Shown: positions 11,846 through 20,251 of the stretch, piece after piece
How the letters are laid out: each line of letters opens with the position of its first letter
Numbering within the stretch: position 1 is the stretch's first letter
Source: an uncultured Actinomycetota bacterium
GTDB lineage: Bacteria > Actinomycetota > Actinomycetes > Mycobacteriales > Micromonosporaceae
Assembly: GCA_963797675.1 (NCBI GenBank)
Contig: CAWCQQ010000008.1
Span: forward strand, 6,425-70,424
DNA length: 64,000 nt
Direction of reading: 5' to 3'
Made by a program: the position numbers and the translations under genes
The notes under the pieces: model-generated
Told to the model about the DNA's origin: nothing
Seen by the model: the letters and a program-made list of their open reading frames with translations, nothing else
The model's database searches: none

Positions 11846-13717
11846 GTGGGGATATCCGGTTGGTTGGTCGTGCTGGTCGCGGTTGCGACGGCGGCCGGTG
11901 CGCTCGCCCGCCGGTACGGCATCTCCGAGCCACTCGTCCTGACCATAGTCGGGCTGGCCGGATCGTTCCTCCCGTTCGTACCGACCCTGCATCTCACGCC
12001 GGACGTCGTCCTCGCCGGCCTGCTCCCGCCGCTGCTCTACACGGCCGCGATCCGGACGTCGCTGGTCGACTTCAAGGCGAACAAGCGACCGATCATGCTG
12101 CTCTCCGTCGGTCTCGTGGTGTTCACCACGTTCGGGGTCGCGCTGGTCGTCTGGTGGCTGCTGCCGGTCCCGTTCGCGGCAGCGGTTGCGCTCGGCGCCG
12201 TTGTCGCGCCGCCGGACGCCGTTGCCGCGACCGCGATCGCGCGCCGGACCGGGCTGCCCCGGCGGGTCGTGACGATCCTTGAGGGGGAGTCGCTGTTCAA
12301 CGACGCGGCCGCGCTGGTCACGTTGCGTACCGCGATCTTCGCGATTGCCGGTGCGGTCAGCGTGTGGCACATCGGCCGGGACTTTCTGGTCAGCGTCGTC
12401 GGCGGTATCGCGGTCGGTGTGGCGGTGGCGTACCTGCTCGGCGCGATCCGGCGCCAGGTCGTCAATCCGGTCACGGACACCACCATCTCGTTTCTCGCGC
12501 CGTTCGTCGCCTACCTCCCGGCCGAGCGCATCGATGGTTCCGGCGTGCTGGCCGTGGTCACCGCCGGTTTGATCCTCGGCCAGAACGCGCCCCGCTGGCA
12601 GAGCGCCTCGTCGCGGATCGCCGAGCGCACGAACTGGCGTACCGTCCAGTTCGTCCTGGAAAACGCGGTGTTCGTGCTGATCGGATTGCAGGTCCGAGCG
12701 ATCGTGGAATCGGCATGGCGCACAAACCTCGGACACGGCCGCCTGCTCGGAGTCTGCGGTGCGGTGCTGCTCGCCGTGGTGGTCCTCCGGCCGCTCTGGG
12801 TGTTCCCGGCCACCTACCTGCCACGGCTGATCCCGTCGGTCGCTCGCGCCGATCCGTCGCCGTCGTGGAAGGTGCCGGCGGTCATCTCGTGGGCCGGCAT
12901 GCGAGGTGTGGTCACGCTGGCGGCCGTGTTCGTGATCCCGGCGAGCGTGCCGTACCAGCCGGTTCTGGTGCTGTTGTCGTTGGTGGTCGTCGCTGGGACG
13001 CTGCTCGTCCAGGGCACGACGCTGCCCGCGCTGGTCCGGGCGCTCGCGATGCGCGGCCCGAGCCGGGCCGAAGATGCGCTGCAGGTCGCGAACCTGCTCC
13101 AGCAGGTGACATCGGCCGGTGAACGCACGCTCGACGAGGTCACCGACGAGAACACCGACAAGGCCACGATCAAACAATTGCGGGTACGGGCGGAAGCGCG
13201 TACGAACGCGGCGTGGGAGCGGCTGGGCCCGGGGGAGGCCGAACGGAGTACGCCGAGCGAGACCTACCGCAAGCTACGGCTGATCATGCTCGGCGCGGAG
13301 CGGGCCGAACTGCTCCGGGTCCGTGACTCCGGTGTCATGGATCATGAAGTGATGCAGGTCGTGATGCAGATGATCGACCTGGAAGAGTCGATGATCGATC
13401 GGCTCGAACTCGCGGAGGACGAGCTGCGCGAGGAGGAGCTGAACCTCGTGCCCGGATCGGCCGAGTGCGTCCATCTGCACAAGGCACCGCGCGCGCTCCG
13501 CCCGGACACGCCGGGTGTCTGTGAGCGCTGCGTCGAGGGCGGCTCGACGTGGGTGCACCTGCGGATGTGTTTGACCTGTGGGCACATTGCGTGTTGCGAT
13601 TCGAGCCCGCAGCGGCATGCGACCGCGCACTTCCAGGCGGAGCAGCATCCGGTGATGCGCAGCGTCGAACCGGGCGAGGCGTGGCGTTGGTGCTACGTCG
13701 ACGAACTTCTCGGCTGA
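11846..13717 (+). CDS. Na+/H+ antiporter (CPA1/NhaP type) fused to a C-terminal UBP-type zinc finger
   Basis: 623 aa. It has ~12 TM spans with ESL(F)NDA and WAGMRG(V)V motifs. The C-terminus reads CERC..W.HLRMCLTCGHIACCDSS..HA..H, a zf-UBP pattern. Confidence 0.9.
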   Translation: MGISGWLVVLVAVATAAGALARRYGISEPLVLTIVGLAGSFLPFVPTLHLTPDVVLAGLLPPLLYTAAIRTSLVDFKANKRPIMLLSVGLVVFTTFGVALVVWWLLPVPFAAAVALGAVVAPPDAVAATAIARRTGLPRRVVTILEGESLFNDAAALVTLRTAIFAIAGAVSVWHIGRDFLVSVVGGIAVGVAVAYLLGAIRRQVVNPVTDTTISFLAPFVAYLPAERIDGSGVLAVVTAGLILGQNAPRWQSASSRIAERTNWRTVQFVLENAVFVLIGLQVRAIVESAWRTNLGHGRLLGVCGAVLLAVVVLRPLWVFPATYLPRLIPSVARADPSPSWKVPAVISWAGMRGVVTLAAVFVIPASVPYQPVLVLLSLVVVAGTLLVQGTTLPALVRALAMRGPSRAEDALQVANLLQQVTSAGERTLDEVTDENTDKATIKQLRVRAEARTNAAWERLGPGEAERSTPSETYRKLRLIMLGAERAELLRVRDSGVMDHEVMQVVMQMIDLEESMIDRLELAEDELREEELNLVPGSAECVHLHKAPRALRPDTPGVCERCVEGGSTWVHLRMCLTCGHIACCDSSPQRHATAHFQAEQHPVMRSVEPGEAWRWCYVDELLG

Positions 13718-13729
13718 CCGTTTAGCCGT

Positions 13730-15391
13730 TCAACTCAGTACGTCGACGTATGCACGGATGTTGTTGAGCAGCTGTGCCAGCTGCTTCGCGTGCTTGGCGC
13801 CGACCGGCCGCGGTACGCCGTCGCCGAACGTCACGTGGGTCGGCGTCGGGCTCTCGAAGCGTTTCCGCGGAAAGTCGACGTACCGGCAGGCCGAGGACGC
13901 GTAGTTGTCGCTCCAATAGACGCCGGTGTTCGTGAACAGCACGGACTGGTACGCCCCGACGTGCAGAAACGCGACCGTCTCCTCGTTCGTGGAGACGCCC
14001 GCATTCGTCCGGGCACGGCGCAGCGGTCCGGAATCGGCTGGCGTGAGCAGCAGATCGGGGACTGTGGAGACGCGGATCGCATCAGCGATCGCACTAGCGG
14101 TGACGAAGCGCGGAGCGCGTGGTGGTTCGGCGTCCGCCTGAGCGGTCGGGGACTGCGGCGTGTTCGCCCCATGGCTGGTGGCGCGCTCACCGGCTCTGGT
14201 CGCAAGATCCCGCGCGTATTGGGTCATCGGGGTAGGCCATGATGTGCTCACCGATAGGCCGGCATCGATTTGGAAGACTTCAGGGTCGGAGATCGATGCC
14301 TGGCCCACCGCTGGAATCTCCGCCGGTTCCGCATCGGGCGGCGAAGCAGGCACTGGCACCGGCTGCTGCGGCAGGACCGCGGCGGCGGCGGCGACGGTGA
14401 CCTCGATCGGCAGCTCGACGACCGTACCGCTGATCCGATCGTGTACGTAGACGTAGGCGAGGTGCCGACCGGGCGGCGGGTCGAGAGACACGTCGAAGTA
14501 GCCGTCGTCGGGTCGGACCGTAACCCACTCGGTCGGCGATCCGGCTCGCCAGTCGGCCGGCCCGTTCGGATCGGTACGGACGAACACGCGGCTGTTCGGT
14601 GGCCGGCTCCCGGCCGGGACGGTGTCGGCGAACCGAATGCCGGTCGAGGACAGCGTTAGCGGAGCCAGGACGGCGGCGACCGGACCGTTGCCGCGGGCGA
14701 TCGTCAGCTCGCCGGCACCCTCGGTGTGGAACTGCGGTTCGGCCTGCCCGTACCCGGACATCTTTCCGTAGACGTACTGGTAGAGCTCGTGGATCGAGAT
14801 TTCCGCGCCGATCGCCGCCGCGCCGGCGAGCCCCTGAGTGAGGTGCCGGGTGAAGAGGCTGGGTGCGTTGCGATCGACCGTGTCCGGTGTCAACTGGGTG
14901 GCGCGCGAGCTGGTCAGGACGAAGCGGCCGGTGCCGGCCAGCGGAGAGGAGATGTCGGCGTCCTTGAACGCGCCGCTGTGGCAGCAGTCGAGCACCACCA
15001 CGATGGTCTTCGCGGCCGAGTCGGACATCGCGTCGTTGAGCCATCGGGAGCCGAGAGCGGTCGCGTTCATCCGGGCGAGAACCGTATCGGCGGCGCACAG
15101 AAACAGCTGGTTGTTGGCGTTGCGTACGCCGTGGCCGCTGTAGTAGAAGACCAGGACGTCGTTGCGGGTGGCGTCGGCGAAGAAGCCCTCGATCTCCTCG
15201 CGCAGCTCCTGGATCGGACGTTCCGGCAGACGGCGTACGTCGTCGGGCTTGAATAGCCCGCGTCGCTCGTCGGTGATCGCCGCGAACATCAGCGGCACGT
15301 CGTTCGCCGGACCTTCGAGGTCGGCGAGGTGTGGCTCATGAGCAAACCGGGAGTTGCCGATCAGGATGGCCCGGTAGCGCCGATCGGTCAC
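13730..15391 (-). CDS. Caspase-like (peptidase C14) protein with long uncharacterised C-terminal extension
   Basis: The N-terminal ~240 aa carry YRAILIGN, the catalytic-His context FYYSGHG and the catalytic-Cys context VVLDCCHSGAF. Residues ~240-553 have no family I recognise. Confidence 0.85.
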   Translation of the reverse strand: MTDRRYRAILIGNSRFAHEPHLADLEGPANDVPLMFAAITDERRGLFKPDDVRRLPERPIQELREEIEGFFADATRNDVLVFYYSGHGVRNANNQLFLCAADTVLARMNATALGSRWLNDAMSDSAAKTIVVVLDCCHSGAFKDADISSPLAGTGRFVLTSSRATQLTPDTVDRNAPSLFTRHLTQGLAGAAAIGAEISIHELYQYVYGKMSGYGQAEPQFHTEGAGELTIARGNGPVAAVLAPLTLSSTGIRFADTVPAGSRPPNSRVFVRTDPNGPADWRAGSPTEWVTVRPDDGYFDVSLDPPPGRHLAYVYVHDRISGTVVELPIEVTVAAAAAVLPQQPVPVPASPPDAEPAEIPAVGQASISDPEVFQIDAGLSVSTSWPTPMTQYARDLATRAGERATSHGANTPQSPTAQADAEPPRAPRFVTASAIADAIRVSTVPDLLLTPADSGPLRRARTNAGVSTNEETVAFLHVGAYQSVLFTNTGVYWSDNYASSACRYVDFPRKRFESPTPTHVTFGDGVPRPVGAKHAKQLAQLLNNIRAYVDVLS

Positions 15392-15771
15392 GGGGAGGTG
15401 CTGCCGGGCCCGGCCAGCGCGGCCGCGAATTTCGCGAGCGTCTCGTCGCTGAGGCCGGTGCCGCGGAGGACCAGCTTCTCCTCTTTACCGTCGACCGTCC
15501 GGGTCAGCTCGATCACCCGGGTGGGGTCGCGTCGCAGCCAGCCGCCGAGGCACTGCAATGCGACCTTGATCGTGCCGGGCGTGATCAGGCTCAGGATCAG
15601 CGCCTCGGTGAACCCTTTCGCGTTCGGCACGACCGTACGCTCGAGACGAGCGGCTTCGGTCTCTTCCATCAACTCGTTCCACAGTTCGCGTTCGGCCTCG
15701 CTGACACGTTCGTCGTCCGGGTCGAATCGCTCGGAACTGGTGGCAAGCTGGAACTCGGATGCCGTGGTCAT
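15388..15771 (-). CDS. Small adaptor-like protein, possible effector-associated constant component (EACC1-like)
   Basis: 127 aa with an acidic N-terminal helix. The core then resembles remembered EACC1 proteins (LILSLITPGTIKVALQCLGGWLRRDP..IELTRTVDG..LVLRG.GLSDETLAKFAAAL). Its stop overlaps the caspase start by 4 nt. Confidence 0.45.
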   Translation of the reverse strand: MTTASEFQLATSSERFDPDDERVSEAERELWNELMEETEAARLERTVVPNAKGFTEALILSLITPGTIKVALQCLGGWLRRDPTRVIELTRTVDGKEEKLVLRGTGLSDETLAKFAAALAGPGSTSP

Positions 15772-15786
15772 GTGCAGATTGTGAAT

Positions 15787-15852
15787 GGCGTAGCGCCGCT
15801 ACGCCAGCCTCCAACCGAATGACGGACGCGGTGTCCCGTCGGACACCGCGTC
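15787..15852 (-). terminator. Two GC-rich hairpins between the vWA gene and the EACC1-like gene
   Basis: A 12-bp perfect stem GACGCGGTGTCC-cgtc-GGACACCGCGTC (15825-15852) begins 11 nt after the vWA stop. A 19-nt palindrome GGCGTAGCGcCGCTACGCC lies at 15787-15805. No U-tract. Confidence 0.5.
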
Positions 15853-15862
15853 GCCAACTACG

Positions 15863-18190
15863 TCACCGCTTCCAGAACGCTCGCTTCGACTCGCCTGCGC
15901 CGGCGCCCCCACCTGCGAATGCCTGCAGCGGCTCGAGCGTCCACTGTCCTGTGTCGAGGTCCGCGATCATCCGTACCAGAGTCTCGACGTCGGGCTCGGT
16001 CGCGCCGATCGATCGCAGGTCATCGACGAGGTCGACGAGTTCGCGCCGCAGGCCGTCCGGGTCCAGCTGGCCGCGTTCGACCCGATCGAGCAGGTCACCG
16101 GCGCGCTTTCGATAGGGCGTGAGGTCCAGCACCGCGGCTTCCTTGCGCTTCGGCTGGTCGTCGCCGCGGACTCGGATCGATCGCTGGGCCGCCGGCGGCA
16201 ACGAGAGGTTCACGGCGCCACCCGATCTCGCGGCCCTCATGCGCTTCGGCGCCGACATCGAAGTCGGCATGGGTGCGGCCGCCGGAGCCGCCATTGCCGC
16301 ACCGAAGCCGCCCACCATCGGCGGGCTCATCGGCGCCGCATCCGCCTGGAACATGTCCCAGCCGTGCGGTGCATCCACCGGCTGCGTGACCTTGCGCATG
16401 GTGCCGCCCTCGACCACCACTACGACGTCAACCGCGACGAACGCGGTGAACCGGGACAGCACCATACCGTCCAATGACGTGCGGACGATCTCGCGTTCGA
16501 TTGCCTCATCGCCGAACGCGACAACATAGCGGTCCTCGAGATCGCGGATGTGTGCACGCGCCCAGGCCGGCGCGAGAGCTGCGCTGCCGGTGCCGGACGC
16601 GGCGACCTCGGTCGCCCATGGCCGACCGGCCGCGTCGGTCGCGGTGACCCGGACGGTGCCGGTCGGATCGCCGGTAAACCGCCCGAGTACGACCAGCGGC
16701 GCGCCCTCGTGCAACGCGGGCAGGCGCGCCGGAGCGACCGTACCGGCGGTGATGCCGAGACCGGGGCCGGTGATCGTGATGCCGCTGAGCACCGGCGCGC
16801 TGATCCTCCGGTGGATGCGTTCCATCACCTCGTCGAGACGATCTTCGGACTCGACGACCTCGCAGCTTCCGCCGCCCGCGGCCGCGACCCGGCGCAGGAA
16901 CGCGTCGTTGACGGCGGTGTCAATCCCGACCGTGAAGATGCGGATGTTGGCCGCATCCGGTCCGATCGCGGCGAGGATCTGATCCTCGTTGCCGACCTGG
17001 CCGTCGGTGGCCAGGACGAGGACCCGGTCGCGGGTACGGTCGTCGCCGGCCAGAACCTGGACCGCTTGCTGCAGGGGTTCGAGCATTTCGGTGCCGCCCC
17101 GCGCATCGAGCGTGGCCAGGTATTCGACCGCCCGGAACCGCTGCCGATCGGTCGCCGCGACCAGACCGCCGTCCAGCGTGGAGGGAGTCTCCACGCGGTC
17201 GTCGAACGCGAGCACCGCGAACCGATCGCCGCTGCCCAGCGTATCGATCATGCGGGCCACGGCACGCCGGGCGGCGGTCATTTTCCAGCCTTGCATGCTG
17301 CCCGAACGATCCAGGACGAAGACGATGTCGCGGGGCCGGGTCGTACCGGCGGCTCGGGCCGGCGGCACGATCGTGAGCGCGAACGTGCCCTCGTGCGCGA
17401 CCAGTGACGTTCCGATGGTGTCGGTGCCGACATCGAACCGGATCACCAGGTCGCGATCGAGGCGCTGACCGGGCTGGAGCGTGACGACCGAACCGTCGAT
17501 GCGAGCCGGGAGGCTGGACCGGATGCCGGTTACCGGCAGCCCGGCTGCGTCGATGTCGACCCGTACGCCGAGCCGGACCGGGTTCGGAAAACCGGGCAGC
17601 AGCACCGGCGGCGTGATCCGGGATGCGTCCGGGACGGCATCAGTGTCGATCGCGGTACCGTCGCCGACCGGCGCGCCGGGCAGCGGGTTGCCCGGGATGT
17701 AGCGCGGCGCCACGACCAGCGGGAACCGCCACGTCGCCTCGCCGGAGTCCAGCGCCAGCGGCCCCGCCAGCATCAGCTCGACGGTCGCGCGGTCACCGGG
17801 AAGGAGGTTTCCGACCCGTACCGTAAAAATGTTCGGACGCTCTTCCTCGGCGATGGCCGCGCGCCGCCCCTCGGAGATCGCCTGGTCATAGTTGTGGCGG
17901 GCCTCCGCACGCTCCTGCAGCAGGCCTTCCACCACCCGGTCGCCGACCTCCATCCGGAACGCCGTCACCGCGGCGCGGTCCGGCAGCGGGAAGATGTACG
18001 TCGCCTCCAGCGGCTCGTCGTGCGGATTCGTGAACGTCTGGCGGACCCGCGAGGTGTGCAGCAGTCCGGTGATGTGCGCGTCGATGTCGACGGCCTCGAG
18101 TGGCAGGTTGCCACGTTCGGTGGTGAGGCAACCGAGACCGGCCTCGTCATCGACGGTAATGGTGTCGGACATCAGTGGCACGGAGTTCAT
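15863..18190 (-). CDS. VIT domain + von Willebrand factor type A domain protein
   Basis: 775 aa. The N-terminal VIT pattern reads VRQTFTNPHDEPLEATYIFPLPDRAAVTAFRMEVGDRVVEG. The vWA domain has a MIDAS motif (VFVLDRSGSM). The ATG is preceded by AGGAC. Confidence 0.9.
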   Translation of the reverse strand: MNSVPLMSDTITVDDEAGLGCLTTERGNLPLEAVDIDAHITGLLHTSRVRQTFTNPHDEPLEATYIFPLPDRAAVTAFRMEVGDRVVEGLLQERAEARHNYDQAISEGRRAAIAEEERPNIFTVRVGNLLPGDRATVELMLAGPLALDSGEATWRFPLVVAPRYIPGNPLPGAPVGDGTAIDTDAVPDASRITPPVLLPGFPNPVRLGVRVDIDAAGLPVTGIRSSLPARIDGSVVTLQPGQRLDRDLVIRFDVGTDTIGTSLVAHEGTFALTIVPPARAAGTTRPRDIVFVLDRSGSMQGWKMTAARRAVARMIDTLGSGDRFAVLAFDDRVETPSTLDGGLVAATDRQRFRAVEYLATLDARGGTEMLEPLQQAVQVLAGDDRTRDRVLVLATDGQVGNEDQILAAIGPDAANIRIFTVGIDTAVNDAFLRRVAAAGGGSCEVVESEDRLDEVMERIHRRISAPVLSGITITGPGLGITAGTVAPARLPALHEGAPLVVLGRFTGDPTGTVRVTATDAAGRPWATEVAASGTGSAALAPAWARAHIRDLEDRYVVAFGDEAIEREIVRTSLDGMVLSRFTAFVAVDVVVVVEGGTMRKVTQPVDAPHGWDMFQADAAPMSPPMVGGFGAAMAAPAAAPMPTSMSAPKRMRAARSGGAVNLSLPPAAQRSIRVRGDDQPKRKEAAVLDLTPYRKRAGDLLDRVERGQLDPDGLRRELVDLVDDLRSIGATEPDVETLVRMIADLDTGQWTLEPLQAFAGGGAGAGESKRAFWKR

Positions 18191-18199
18191 GACTGTCCT

Positions 18200-18422
18200 A
18201 ATGAGTTCTGGGAGTGAGCCATCCGGCAGACTCCTGGTGGGTAGGTAGCCGCCGGCAGATGAGCACTCGATTCTCCTGGACGTTGAGTCCTGACGAAAGA
18301 TCGTGCTGCTGCCGGTCGGTGGGGAGAGTTGATCGCTGATGGGATGTCGTGCCCGCCGGTTTGCTGCGTGAGCACTGCTTCATTAGGTCGCTGATGGTTC
18401 TCCCGCTGGCTGCTGTGTATCG
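18200..18422 (+). ncRNA. Candidate IS110 bridge-RNA-type non-coding region (left end)
   Basis: This ~220-nt non-coding stretch lies 5' of the transposase, where IS110-group elements encode their guide (bridge) RNA. An inverted pair CCTAATGA (18197-18204) / TCATTAGG (18380-18387) brackets it. I did not model the structure. Confidence 0.3.
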
Positions 18423-19679
18423 GTGTCGGAGACGGGAGCTGCGTTGCTGTTCGTAGGAGATGACTGGGCTGAGGATCACCACGACGTGGAGTTGATGGAC
18501 GCCTCCGGGCGTCGGCTGGCCAAGGCCCGGCTGAGCGAGGGTGTGGCGGGGATCGCCCGGTTGCACGCGATGATCGGCGAGCAGCTCGGCGACGACGCCG
18601 ACGACGCCGACGACGCTGCCGGGCAGGTGAAGGTCGGGATCGAGACCGATCGGGGTCCGTGGGTGCAGGCGCTGATCGCGGCCGGATACATCGTGTTCGC
18701 GGTCAACCCGTTGCAGGCGGCCCGATACCGGGAACGCCTCGGTGTGTCGGGTGCCAAGAGCGACGCCGGCGACGCGCACATCCTCGCGGACATGGTTCGC
18801 ACCGACTCCCATCAGCTGCGCCCGGTCGCGGGTGACACCGCCGAGGTCGAGGCGGTCAAGGTGGTCACCCGGATGCATAAGACGCTGATCTGGGAACGGA
18901 CCCGGGCCGGGCAGCGGTTGCGGCACGCGTTGCGGGAGTACTTTCCCGCCGCGCTGCAGGCGTTCGAGGATCTCGACGCCGCCGACACCCTGGAACTCCT
19001 CGCCAAGGCCCCGGACCTGGCCGGTGCGGCCAGGCTGACGACCGCGCAGATCAGCGCCGCCCTCAAACGCGCCCGCCGCCGCGACATCCCGGCGAAGACC
19101 GCGACGATTCAGGCGGTACTGCGCGCCGAACACCTCGGCCAACCCGCTGTCGTCACCGCCGCCTACGCCGCGTCGGTCCGCGCACTGGTCGCGATCCTGG
19201 GCACCCTCAACGAGCAGGTCACGATCCTGCAGGGCGAGGTCGAGGCCTATTTTGGTCGGCACCCGGACGCTGAGATCGTGCTGTCCCAGCCCGGGCTGGG
19301 ACCGATCCTCGGCGCCCGGGTGCTTGCCGAGTTCGGCGACGACCACGACCGGTACATCTCGGCGAAGGCCCGCAAAAACTATGCCGCCACCAGCCCGATC
19401 ACCCGCACGTCCGGGAAGAAGAAGGTCGTCGCCGCCCGGTTCGTACACAACGACCGACTTATCGACGCGCTGATGACCCAGGCATTCACATCGCTGCGAT
19501 GGTCCCCAGGCGCGAGGGCTTACTACGACCAACAACGCGCCCGCGGCGCCAGCTACAACGCCGCGCTGCGCCAGCTCGCCAACCGGCTCGTCGGCATCCT
19601 CCACGGATGCCTCAAAACCGGCACACCCTACGACGAGGCAACTGCCTGGTCGCACCACCTCACGAACGCTGCTGCTTGA
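18423..19679 (+). CDS. IS110-family transposase (DEDD N-domain + Transposase_20 C-domain)
   Basis: 418 aa. The N-terminus LFVGDDWAEDHHDVELMD..G is typical of IS110. The C-terminal part has QPGLGPILGARVLAEFGD and ARKNYAATSPITRTSGKK. Confidence 0.9.
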   Translation: MSETGAALLFVGDDWAEDHHDVELMDASGRRLAKARLSEGVAGIARLHAMIGEQLGDDADDADDAAGQVKVGIETDRGPWVQALIAAGYIVFAVNPLQAARYRERLGVSGAKSDAGDAHILADMVRTDSHQLRPVAGDTAEVEAVKVVTRMHKTLIWERTRAGQRLRHALREYFPAALQAFEDLDAADTLELLAKAPDLAGAARLTTAQISAALKRARRRDIPAKTATIQAVLRAEHLGQPAVVTAAYAASVRALVAILGTLNEQVTILQGEVEAYFGRHPDAEIVLSQPGLGPILGARVLAEFGDDHDRYISAKARKNYAATSPITRTSGKKKVVAARFVHNDRLIDALMTQAFTSLRWSPGARAYYDQQRARGASYNAALRQLANRLVGILHGCLKTGTPYDEATAWSHHLTNAAA

Positions 19680-19682
19680 CAT

Positions 19683-20216
19683 TCAAGCTCCTGGGATGTC
19701 TTTCGGGAGCTGTGCGACGGCGGCATCGAGTTGAGCGGCGGCGGCGCGCAGTGTGGCGGCTTCGTGGTCGGTCAGAGCCTGGTTGCGGGGGATGAGCACG
19801 ATCGCGCCGCTGGGCAGCGGCACGGTCTGATAGGCGGGCGTTGCCTCGGTCGTACTCCGGGCTCGGGTCGGCTTCGGCACCTGTCGCCAGAAGCCCTCGT
19901 CCGGTACGTCGGCGAGGCGCTTCAACGTGGCGTCGGGTGCGGCGGCCAACTCGTGCTGGATCTCGGCGAGCGTCCGGCCGTCGGCCTGGAGTCGCTTGAT
20001 CGCAACGAGCTGCCACAGGTGGCGCGGACGGTAGAGCGCGGTTCGGCCGCGCATCTCGGCCGGCCGATCGAGGAGTCCGAGCGTCGTGTAGTAGCGGATA
20101 GCGCGGGTGTCCGGGACGTCGGAGACGCGTCGGTTCTGCTGGCCGGGGTATCCGGACGACAATGCGCCCGCAACCCGATCGGCCAACTCGGCCAGCGTCC
20201 ACAACTCCGTATCCAT
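19683..20216 (-). CDS. MerR-family transcriptional regulator
   Basis: It has an N-terminal HTH with WTLAELADR..VPDTRAIRYYTTLGLLDRP..GRTALYRPRHLWQLVAIKRLQADGRTLAEI. Its stop lies 4 nt from the IS110 transposase stop, so the C-terminus may be altered by the insertion. Confidence 0.8.
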   Translation of the reverse strand: MDTELWTLAELADRVAGALSSGYPGQQNRRVSDVPDTRAIRYYTTLGLLDRPAEMRGRTALYRPRHLWQLVAIKRLQADGRTLAEIQHELAAAPDATLKRLADVPDEGFWRQVPKPTRARSTTEATPAYQTVPLPSGAIVLIPRNQALTDHEAATLRAAAAQLDAAVAQLPKDIPGA

Positions 20217-20222
20217 GCACCT

Positions 20223-20251
20223 AATATGACACTGTCATATGACACTGTCAA
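20223..20251 (-). promoter_or_regulatory. Putative leaderless promoter of the merR-like gene overlapping a tandem palindromic operator
   Basis: The minus strand reads TTGACA (20251-20246), a 17-nt spacer, CATATT (20228-20223), then 6 nt to the ATG. The spacer holds two tandem 13-bp copies of TATGACACTGTCA (20225-20250). Each copy contains the palindrome TGACAnTGTCA. Confidence 0.5.

Follow-up and report, generated by a model that had tools for sequence, protein, structure and literature searches.

An effector-associated constant component, EACC1, and a protein with an N-terminal caspase domain make up a self-contained two-gene conflict system, described as "System 4", which is prevalent in actinobacteria and whose core contains no NTPase (Kaur, Burroughs, Iyer & Aravind 2020, eLife, PMC7159879). 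About 50 alternative domains, STAND NTPases among them, are fused C-terminal to the System 4 caspase, and MoxR-independent von Willebrand factor A (vWA) domains are fused to EACC1-type caspases elsewhere (PMC7159879). Since STAND is only one of the alternative fusions, an NTPase is optional in this system and lies outside its core. In the pair of Ktedonobacter racemifer, the caspase cuts EACC1 into fragments of 5.7 kDa and 7.1 kDa, toxicity resides only in the C-terminal fragment, which forms membrane pores, and cleaved EACC1 permeabilises liposomes (Evans et al. 2025, bioRxiv 10.1101/2025.11.14.688446). Here we compare with these systems a locus at positions 13730–20251 of a 64,000-nt stretch (the window) of contig CAWCQQ010000008.1, from an uncultured actinobacterium of the family Micromonosporaceae. 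The DNA of the window has a high GC content, about 68%, and its closest assembled relative is a metagenome-assembled genome (MAG) of an uncultured Actinomycetota bacterium.

A sequence-only reading of this locus had proposed that four co-directional minus-strand genes form one NTPase-free suicide or anti-phage module. The open reading frames (ORFs) are all present as described, at 13730–15391, 15388–15771, 15863–18190 and 19683–20216. Their grouping into one module did not hold. In our view, with a probability of roughly three in four, the region is made of two autonomous two-gene cassettes: EACC1 plus caspase (13730–15771), and a MerR-like regulator plus a VIT-vWA protein (15863–20251). On this view, the two cassettes came to lie side by side in one lineage and do not work as a unit.

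Co-occurrence carries this conclusion. The vWA protein was used as query in genome and metagenome scans for related loci; the metagenome scan yielded 416 relatives, of which the best 80 were analysed. A MerR gene lies upstream of vWA in 64 of the 67 loci with enough upstream sequence, while neither EACC1 nor a caspase was found downstream of vWA in any of the 51 loci with at least 1.5 kb of downstream sequence (0/51 for each by tblastn; profile hidden Markov models, HMMs, agree). Conversely, no vWA or MerR gene accompanies the EACC1-caspase pair at six other EACC1 loci (0/6), all on metagenome or MAG contigs (P0004, P0211, P0165, P0183, P0230 and P0258). The order MerR-vWA-EACC1-caspase was found in the window and on two other, closely related contigs (L002/L006 and a JGI 3300047160 contig), at the same chromosomal position: all three loci have the same neighbours, DUF1232/DUF4230 genes on one side and Na/H-antiporter/SecA genes on the other. 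The three co-occurrences thus represent one inherited arrangement and count as a single evolutionary event. Apart from these two contigs, no co-occurrence outside the window genome was found, an outcome that the sequence-only reading had itself named as refuting it. The features of the locus are as follows.

13730..15391, minus strand: EACC1-associated caspase (Pfam Peptidase_C14, NCBIfam NF047832)
15388..15771, minus strand: divergent EACC1 protein, 127 aa (independent HMM, orthologues)
15772..15805, minus strand: 19-bp palindrome plus −10-like element (read from the sequence)
15825..15852, minus strand: hairpin with a perfect 12-bp stem (folding of the intergenic sequence)
15863..18190, minus strand: VIT plus vWA protein, 775 aa (Pfam VIT, VWA)
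18199..19699, plus strand: IS110-family element, 1501 bp (DEDD_Tnp_IS110, Transposase_20, NF033542)
19683..20216, minus strand: MerR-like helix-turn-helix (HTH) regulator, 177 aa (MerR_1)
20223..20251, minus strand: putative promoter and operator of the MerR-vWA operon (sigma-70-like site, operator enrichment)

The 127-aa protein gave no direct match to Pfam, NCBIfam or PADLOC. When an HMM was built from 54 PF19953 proteins, omitting sequences of the window's lineage, it matched the protein with 90.8 bits (E 1.2e-27) over residues 3–120, that is, over nearly its full length. An orthologue that is 85% identical (P0002) passes the Pfam threshold for EACC1, with 24.0 bits against a cut-off of 23.6. 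An exhaustive HMMER search with a profile of the 127-aa protein and two orthologues retrieved 163 clusters of proteins of 120–140 aa; these carry PF19953, and their name at NCBI and JGI is "effector-associated constant component EACC1". Because of the orthologues and the independent HMM, the protein is a divergent EACC1, as the sequence-only reading had suspected.

The AlphaFold2 (AF2) model of this protein (mean predicted local distance difference test, pLDDT, 84.7) shows the order β1-α1-β2, a linker at residues 48–53, and then β3-α2-β4-β5-α3. The N-terminal β-α-β unit packs on the C-terminal unit, to which the short linker joins it, a layout that matches the description of the K. racemifer EACC1. 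In the EACC1-caspase system, a conserved hydrophobic helix bears a patch of small residues (Gly/Ala/Ser); the model of the window protein has a hydrophobic segment and helix, with a strand at 54–62 and a helix at 65–80. K52 and G53, which lie in the linker, are invariant across the family; EACC1 alignments have no conserved stretch of 7–10 columns. The exposed linker with its invariant K52-G53 is a likely cleavage site in the model, and a cut after K52 would yield fragments with computed masses of 6.0 and 7.9 kDa. No PDB structure matched the model at E≤0.001, the lowest E being 2.9e-3; the best matches, CutA-like ferredoxin folds, had template-modelling scores below 0.45 and were discarded as not significant. 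By analogy with K. racemifer, the window EACC1 is predicted to be a latent pore-forming effector.

The gene downstream of EACC1 encodes a 553-aa protein that matches Pfam Peptidase_C14 at 8.6e-17 and the NCBIfam model NF047832, "caspase, EACC1-associated type", with 164.5 bits for a cut-off of 140. Its motifs YYSGHG and LDCCHSG are present and are invariant in the alignment, so the intact His/Cys dyad noticed at first sight was confirmed. Four parts can be distinguished: the caspase domain (aa 1–233, with His87 and Cys137), an immunoglobulin-like (Ig-like) β-sandwich (aa ~242–334; 14390–14668), a disordered linker rich in Pro and Ala (aa ~358–427), and an α/β C-terminal domain (aa 428–553; 13733–14110). 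In an AF2 model of residues 235–553, pLDDT was above 90 for the Ig-like part, 83–94 for the C-terminal domain and below 50 for the linker. The best Foldseek match of the β-sandwich is the Ig-like domain of the lambda tail tube (E 4.7e-4), and the caspase HMM cross-matched proteins with a BACON_2 domain, which is consistent with the Ig-like assignment. Foldseek matches of the 235–553 model were to the Ig-like domain only and none fell on the C-terminal domain, which also had no match by sequence in Pfam or the PDB. The order of its strands and helices gives the impression of a PH-like fold, which we do not claim.

Residues 1–233 and ~242–334 are conserved among EACC1-type caspases, while the C-terminal domain is common to two orthologues only. 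Using the relative L002 as reference, the ratio of nonsynonymous to synonymous substitution rates (dN/dS) rises along the protein from 0.16 in the caspase domain to 0.30 in the Ig-like part and 0.46 in the linker and C-terminus; the neighbouring antiporter gene gives 0.09. The JGI orthologue of the caspase protein is 56% identical overall, compared with 85% for its EACC1. The rising dN/dS and the lower identity of the caspase protein form the pattern expected of a variable sensor region.

The stop codon of EACC1 and the caspase GTG start have 4 nt in common (GTGA, 15388–15391), just as had been noted from the letters. The same layout recurs elsewhere: in all of the six other EACC1 loci, EACC1 overlaps the start of the downstream protein, which measures 493–751 aa in five cases and in one reaches the contig end after 440 aa. 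Peptidase_C14 is the sole Pfam domain recorded in five of the six; the protein that runs to the contig end has no domain record. At none of these six loci is the caspase protein on record as carrying a fused NTPase domain. Their neighbours are mostly housekeeping genes, and in one locus a gene for an AAA_14/DUF4143 ATPase lies directly upstream of EACC1.

Absence of an NTPase had been a central point of the sequence-only reading, and on this point it was right: no NTPase of STAND or MoxR type lies near the locus, a Pfam scan of the ORFs around it found no AAA+ domain, and in the flanking ORFs the same scan found no VMAP, iSTAND or beta-propeller domain. SecA is the sole ATPase in the neighbourhood; it was recognised from synteny and a blastn comparison with L002, not by a domain search of the window ORF. 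What this absence means is a different matter. The NTPase-free form is the usual state of the EACC1-caspase system in Actinomycetota, and the proposal of a differently wired variant of the vWA-MoxR/STAND systems fails because a pair with an NTPase-free core was already described as System 4 (PMC7159879). The statement that no experimental characterisation existed has likewise been overtaken in the case of the EACC1-caspase pair (bioRxiv 10.1101/2025.11.14.688446). Hence, what looked like an NTPase-free caspase/EACC1/vWA module resolves into a described EACC1-caspase system, with a mechanism published in 2025 for a representative. Among the models of PADLOC-DB v2, only the generic "caspase" model matched (5.6e-11), and EACC1, VIT-vWA and MerR had no match.

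The window EACC1 and caspase, as members of this membrane-targeting system, are most likely a proteolysis-triggered suicide or defence pair. The cleavage and pore steps of the following scheme are taken from the literature. The caspase protein would remain inactive until its fast-evolving C-terminal part (Ig-like domain, linker and ~125-aa domain) meets a trigger. The His87/Cys137 protease would then cut EACC1 in the exposed 48–53 linker, beside Lys52-Gly53, and free a C-terminal fragment of ~7.9 kDa. This fragment would oligomerise into membrane pores and cause cell death, in the manner of abortive infection or programmed death. No NTPase would be required at any of these steps.

The second cassette comprises a VIT-vWA protein and a MerR-like regulator. 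In the former (15863–18190), Pfam detects VIT at 6.6e-35 and VWA at 4e-17. The metal ion-dependent adhesion site (MIDAS) motif DRSGS, together with downstream GGTE and TDGQ elements, bears out its description as an intact-MIDAS VIT-vWA protein. The rest of the protein comprises a low-complexity linker, a helical region towards the C-terminus and, at the very end, an FWKR tail. No signal peptide or transmembrane segment is visible in the sequence, and the protein is predicted to be cytoplasmic; the closest solved structures are ITIH4 and PARP4. The product of 19683–20216 was correctly recognised as a MerR-type regulator: it matches MerR_1 (PF13411) at 1.9e-9 and, in the PDB, the MerR-family protein 5gpe at 6e-5. 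Compared with the MerR, CadR and CueR equivalogs, it falls far short of the cut-off scores.

MerR plus VIT-vWA is a separate and widespread operon, present in at least four phyla. Orthologues of the VIT-vWA protein with 48–79% identity occur in the 80 metagenome loci and in MAGs of four other phyla. In the genome scan, the closest relatives (48–54% identity) belong to Gemmataceae, Bradymonadales, Planctomycetaceae and Pirellulales MAGs, and each has a MerR homologue (46–55% identity) directly upstream of vWA. None of these MAG relatives has EACC1 or a caspase at the locus, and the neighbours of the pair are unrelated (a DsbA-like protein, a thiamine pyrophosphate enzyme, DnaA, a nitrilase). 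Clustering of the ORFs in the flanks found no third recurrent partner of MerR-vWA, only local housekeeping synteny, of which a PALP enzyme in 14 loci is an example. At the 80 related vWA loci, where representative ORFs only were compared with Pfam, no recurrent family, MoxR included, was found apart from MerR and housekeeping proteins. A phage origin of the cassette was considered and rejected, as no relative appeared in IMG/VR viral contigs.

The cultured actinomycete Nonomuraea gerenzanensis carries a MerR-VIT-vWA pair with the same operator. Its locus (L097; NZ_LT559118.1, 4276350–4288110) is essentially unannotated in PLSDB, where the 11.85-Mb NZ_LT559118.1 is listed as "plasmid I"; the size suggests a chromosome. 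We found no paper in the literature that describes a MerR + VIT + vWA pair, and the pair is absent from PADLOC and has no functional annotation in the libraries searched. The MerR-vWA operon, with a sharply delimited operator and a conserved FW[KR] tail on the vWA protein, is perhaps the more useful result of this analysis, and its occurrence in N. gerenzanensis makes direct testing possible.

A terminal tail of FW[KR] type follows a variable low-complexity linker in 67 of 73 vWA orthologues, as judged by the regular expression [FWY]W within the last 14 residues; the window tail is encoded at 15863–15880. Inside the MerR partners, an FW...P motif is conserved, which in the window reads GFWRQVP (19875–19895). 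The FW of MerR and of the vWA tail may be a shared short linear motif for partner switching. We know of no described function for such a tail or motif.

Upstream of the regulator gene, the palindrome TGACAGTGTCA occurs in two copies, at 20227–20237 and 20240–20250. Four matches to it were found where 0.59 were expected, and none of 100 shuffles reached four; the palindromic operator attributed to MerR by the sequence-only reading thus stands as a predicted site. The resulting 24-bp operator, TGACAGTGTCA-TA-TGACAGTGTCA, overlaps both the −35 and the −10 of a promoter with −35 TTGACA, a 17-nt spacer and a TG-extended −10 CATATT, the only sigma-70-like site in 7 kb in an E. coli-type consensus scan. 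The MerR ATG lies 6 nt after the −10 in the window, and so short a distance indicates an mRNA with little or no leader. Of 63 MerR-vWA loci, which come from several phyla, 49 carry the two-arm operator, TTGACAsTGTCA-TA-TGACAsTGTCA; its register with the −35 TTGACA is fixed, and an ATG usually follows about 10–14 nt downstream. This arrangement implies leaderless, autoregulated operons.

The spacer bears on the mode of regulation. The over-long spacer of 19–20 bp on which activation by distortion depends was not found: it is 17 nt here, and the layout is conserved across loci. Together with the TG-extended −10, this favours simple repression over classical MerR-type activation. In a tentative model, the operon would normally be leaderless, translationally coupled and under control of the MerR-like protein, which would bind the 24-bp operator over the −35 and −10 and would most likely act as an autorepressor. 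The operator does not occur elsewhere in the window, the region upstream of EACC1 included.

In the window, this operon is interrupted. The 1.5 kb between MerR and vWA is an IS110 element (18199–19699), with its transposase on the plus strand (18423–19679). Alignment with the uninterrupted relative L002 gave its boundaries: it sits between CCCGAAAG and GACAGTCATGA, with 8 nt separating it from the vWA ATG downstream, and it is single copy in the window. The insertion replaced the last three MerR codons (...PKGQS became ...PKDIPGA) and broke the 4-nt overlap of MerR stop and vWA start that is intact in both relatives. IS110 has thereby separated the vWA gene from MerR and from the promoter in the window genome. 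Two further observations concern the element itself. The actinobacterial small RNA model Ms_AS-4 of Rfam matches antisense to the transposase at 19286–19367 (57.4 bits, gathering score 50). A 224-nt non-coding stretch upstream of the transposase (18199–18422) is the expected place of a putative IS110 bridge or guide RNA.

The junction between the two cassettes measures 91 nt from vWA to EACC1. Directly 3' of the vWA stop, GACGCGGTGTCC and GGACACCGCGTC form a hairpin with a perfect 12-bp stem (15825–15852). The 99-nt intergenic sequence folds at −53.3 kcal/mol (z −4.2), and none of 200 shuffles was as stable. The hairpin is probably a terminator or insulator between the cassettes; L002 appears to keep a hairpin there with a different sequence, a reading by eye of the alignment and not a computed fold. 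Beyond it, a 19-bp palindrome, GGCGTAGCG-G-CGCTACGCC, occupies 15787–15805, about 15 nt before the EACC1 ATG, and a −10-like element, CACAATCTG (CACAAT), ends 6 nt before that ATG. Element and ATG are conserved in L002, and the E. coli-type consensus promoter scan made no call at CACAATCTG. Element and palindrome may give the EACC1-caspase pair a separate promoter with its operator, and the palindrome could be the operator of a regulator of the pair.

The flanks of the locus have a history of their own. In L002, a three-gene block of 4.2 kb lies between EACC1 and caspase (L002 10392–14188); one of its products, a PNP_UDP_1 protein, matches the PADLOC PDC-M60C / PN-superfamily effector (9e-25) and is a candidate defence effector. 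Upstream of MerR, L002 has a 97-aa bpMoxR fragment (PF20030, 1.1e-32; L002 6328–6956), which reads as the pseudogene remnant of a MoxR-vWA-beta-propeller system. Judging from block and pseudogene, the site acts as a small hotspot of conflict genes. On the other side, convergent with the caspase gene, the plus-strand gene at 11846–13717 encodes a Na+/H+ exchanger of the 12-transmembrane type fused to a C-terminal zf-UBP zinc finger, with 89% identity in the relative. The fusion is unusual for a bacterium; in eukaryotes, zf-UBP binds the C-terminus of ubiquitin.

Several observations weigh against the interpretation of the region as two independent cassettes with a working EACC1-caspase pair. 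In each of the three genomes of the lineage, the four genes share one direction and lie contiguously, the JGI 3300047160 copy is uninterrupted, and co-transcription of the two cassettes by read-through is possible. The published EACC1 cleavage site was modelled at Asp, not Lys (bioRxiv 10.1101/2025.11.14.688446). The 127-aa protein itself stays below Pfam's own EACC1 threshold, W23 and Q26, nearly invariant in the family, are replaced in the window lineage, and the nearly invariant small-residue patch G63-S64-A65-G66 reads ITPG there. As a consequence of these residue losses, the pore-forming ability of the divergent EACC1 is not assured.

Carried further, the latter observations lead to a locus in decay, in which IS110 would silence vWA, and possibly the downstream genes by polarity, while EACC1 would have lost pore formation. 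The position of IS110 so close to the vWA ATG, the 4.2-kb insertion between EACC1 and caspase in L002 and the missing W23, Q26 and GSAG patch would all fit such a history, and toxic systems are frequent targets of insertion sequences. We nonetheless consider it doubtful. None of the ORFs is broken, and the catalytic and MIDAS residues are in place; dN/dS versus L002 is 0.16–0.29 across the four genes, all of which are under purifying selection. The unusual EACC1 residues are common to three orthologues with 77–85% identity, which speaks for conserved divergence rather than decay. In addition, the EACC1-caspase pair probably has a promoter of its own 3' of the hairpin, judging from the −10-like element.

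An unlikely explanation, and the one closest to the original proposal, is a single integrated NTPase-free module in which MerR would control expression, VIT-vWA, as a sensor or adaptor dependent on its MIDAS, would activate the caspase, and the caspase would process EACC1. The conserved, co-directional gene order in the three related contigs suggests it, and so do the short gap of 91 nt, the MoxR-independent vWA domains fused to EACC1-type caspases in the literature (another point that counts against two separate cassettes) and the debris of conflict systems at the same spot in L002, namely the bpMoxR pseudogene and the PNP-type effector cassette. Against it stand the counts given above, with EACC1 or caspase in none of the 51 vWA loci and vWA or MerR in none of the other six EACC1-caspase loci, and the common flanks (Na/H antiporter, SecA), which reduce the three co-occurrences to one event. 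Moreover, the cassettes have a stable hairpin between them, EACC1 is not preceded by the MerR operator, and the EACC1-caspase pair comes with its own plausible −10 element. A word-indexed search with the caspase returned 22 relatives, none of which has a vWA domain, so the Rosetta-stone argument from vWA-fused EACC1 caspases draws on the literature. A functional link between the cassettes, for which co-direction, the precedent of vWA-caspase fusions and read-through can be adduced, has no comparative support and we regard it as improbable. Equally improbable is that MerR-VIT-vWA is a new stress- or infection-responsive module, working by FW partner switching, that was recruited in this actinobacterial lineage as an upstream input to the EACC1-caspase pair, a natural split version of the vWA-fused EACC1 caspases.

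With the vWA-MoxR ternary systems (VMAP, iSTAND, beta-propeller; Kaur et al. 2020), the locus shares a vWA protein with intact MIDAS near a caspase effector and, in the relative L002, a bpMoxR pseudogene fragment beside it. Unlike those systems, the window has no MoxR, VMAP or iSTAND genes and no EAD domains, and its vWA protein is of the VIT-vWA (ITIH/PARP4-like) type, with a MerR-like regulator instead of an ATPase as constant partner.

As in canonical MerR, CueR and HspR, the regulator has a MerR_1 winged HTH, is encoded by the first gene of the operon it would control, and has a palindromic operator between and over the −35 and −10. In contrast to that family, the spacer is an optimal 17 nt and not 19–20 nt, the HTH has an insertion, no long coiled coil or metal-binding C-terminus is evident, and the constant partner is a VIT-vWA protein. 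A loose lead to function comes from LT3126 of Limnobacter thiooxidans, a cytoplasmic protein of ~700 aa that combines VIT and vWA with a MIDAS motif and is reportedly induced by gamma-ray stress and protective on overexpression (bioRxiv 10.64898/2026.05.23.727404); the likeness is by description only, and that paper mentions no MerR partner.

The EACC1-caspase pair would follow the logic of bacterial gasdermin-protease pairs, in which an adjacent protease strips the inhibitory part from a latent pore-former. The effector fold is unrelated, a 127-aa EACC1 with no PDB match at E≤0.001, and the inhibitory part is N-terminal in EACC1, whereas it is C-terminal in gasdermin.

The closest relative remains the EACC1-caspase system itself. 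The window pair has in common with it a 5' EACC1 gene translationally coupled to a 3' gene whose product begins with a caspase domain of the EACC1-associated kind, the intact His/Cys dyad, the actinobacterial host, the two-part EACC1 fold with a central hydrophobic helix as modelled here, and a variable, fast-evolving C-terminal region of the caspase protein. It differs in its EACC1, which falls below the Pfam threshold, has lost W23 and Q26 and has ITPG for GSAG, and in its C-terminal module, an Ig-like domain plus a ~125-aa domain that is not among the named sensors of the system (Avs12/STAND, targets of diversity-generating retroelements, DnaK-like, EccC-like). The window pair thus joins the known EACC1-caspase system and adds to it a C-terminal sensor architecture and a divergent EACC1.

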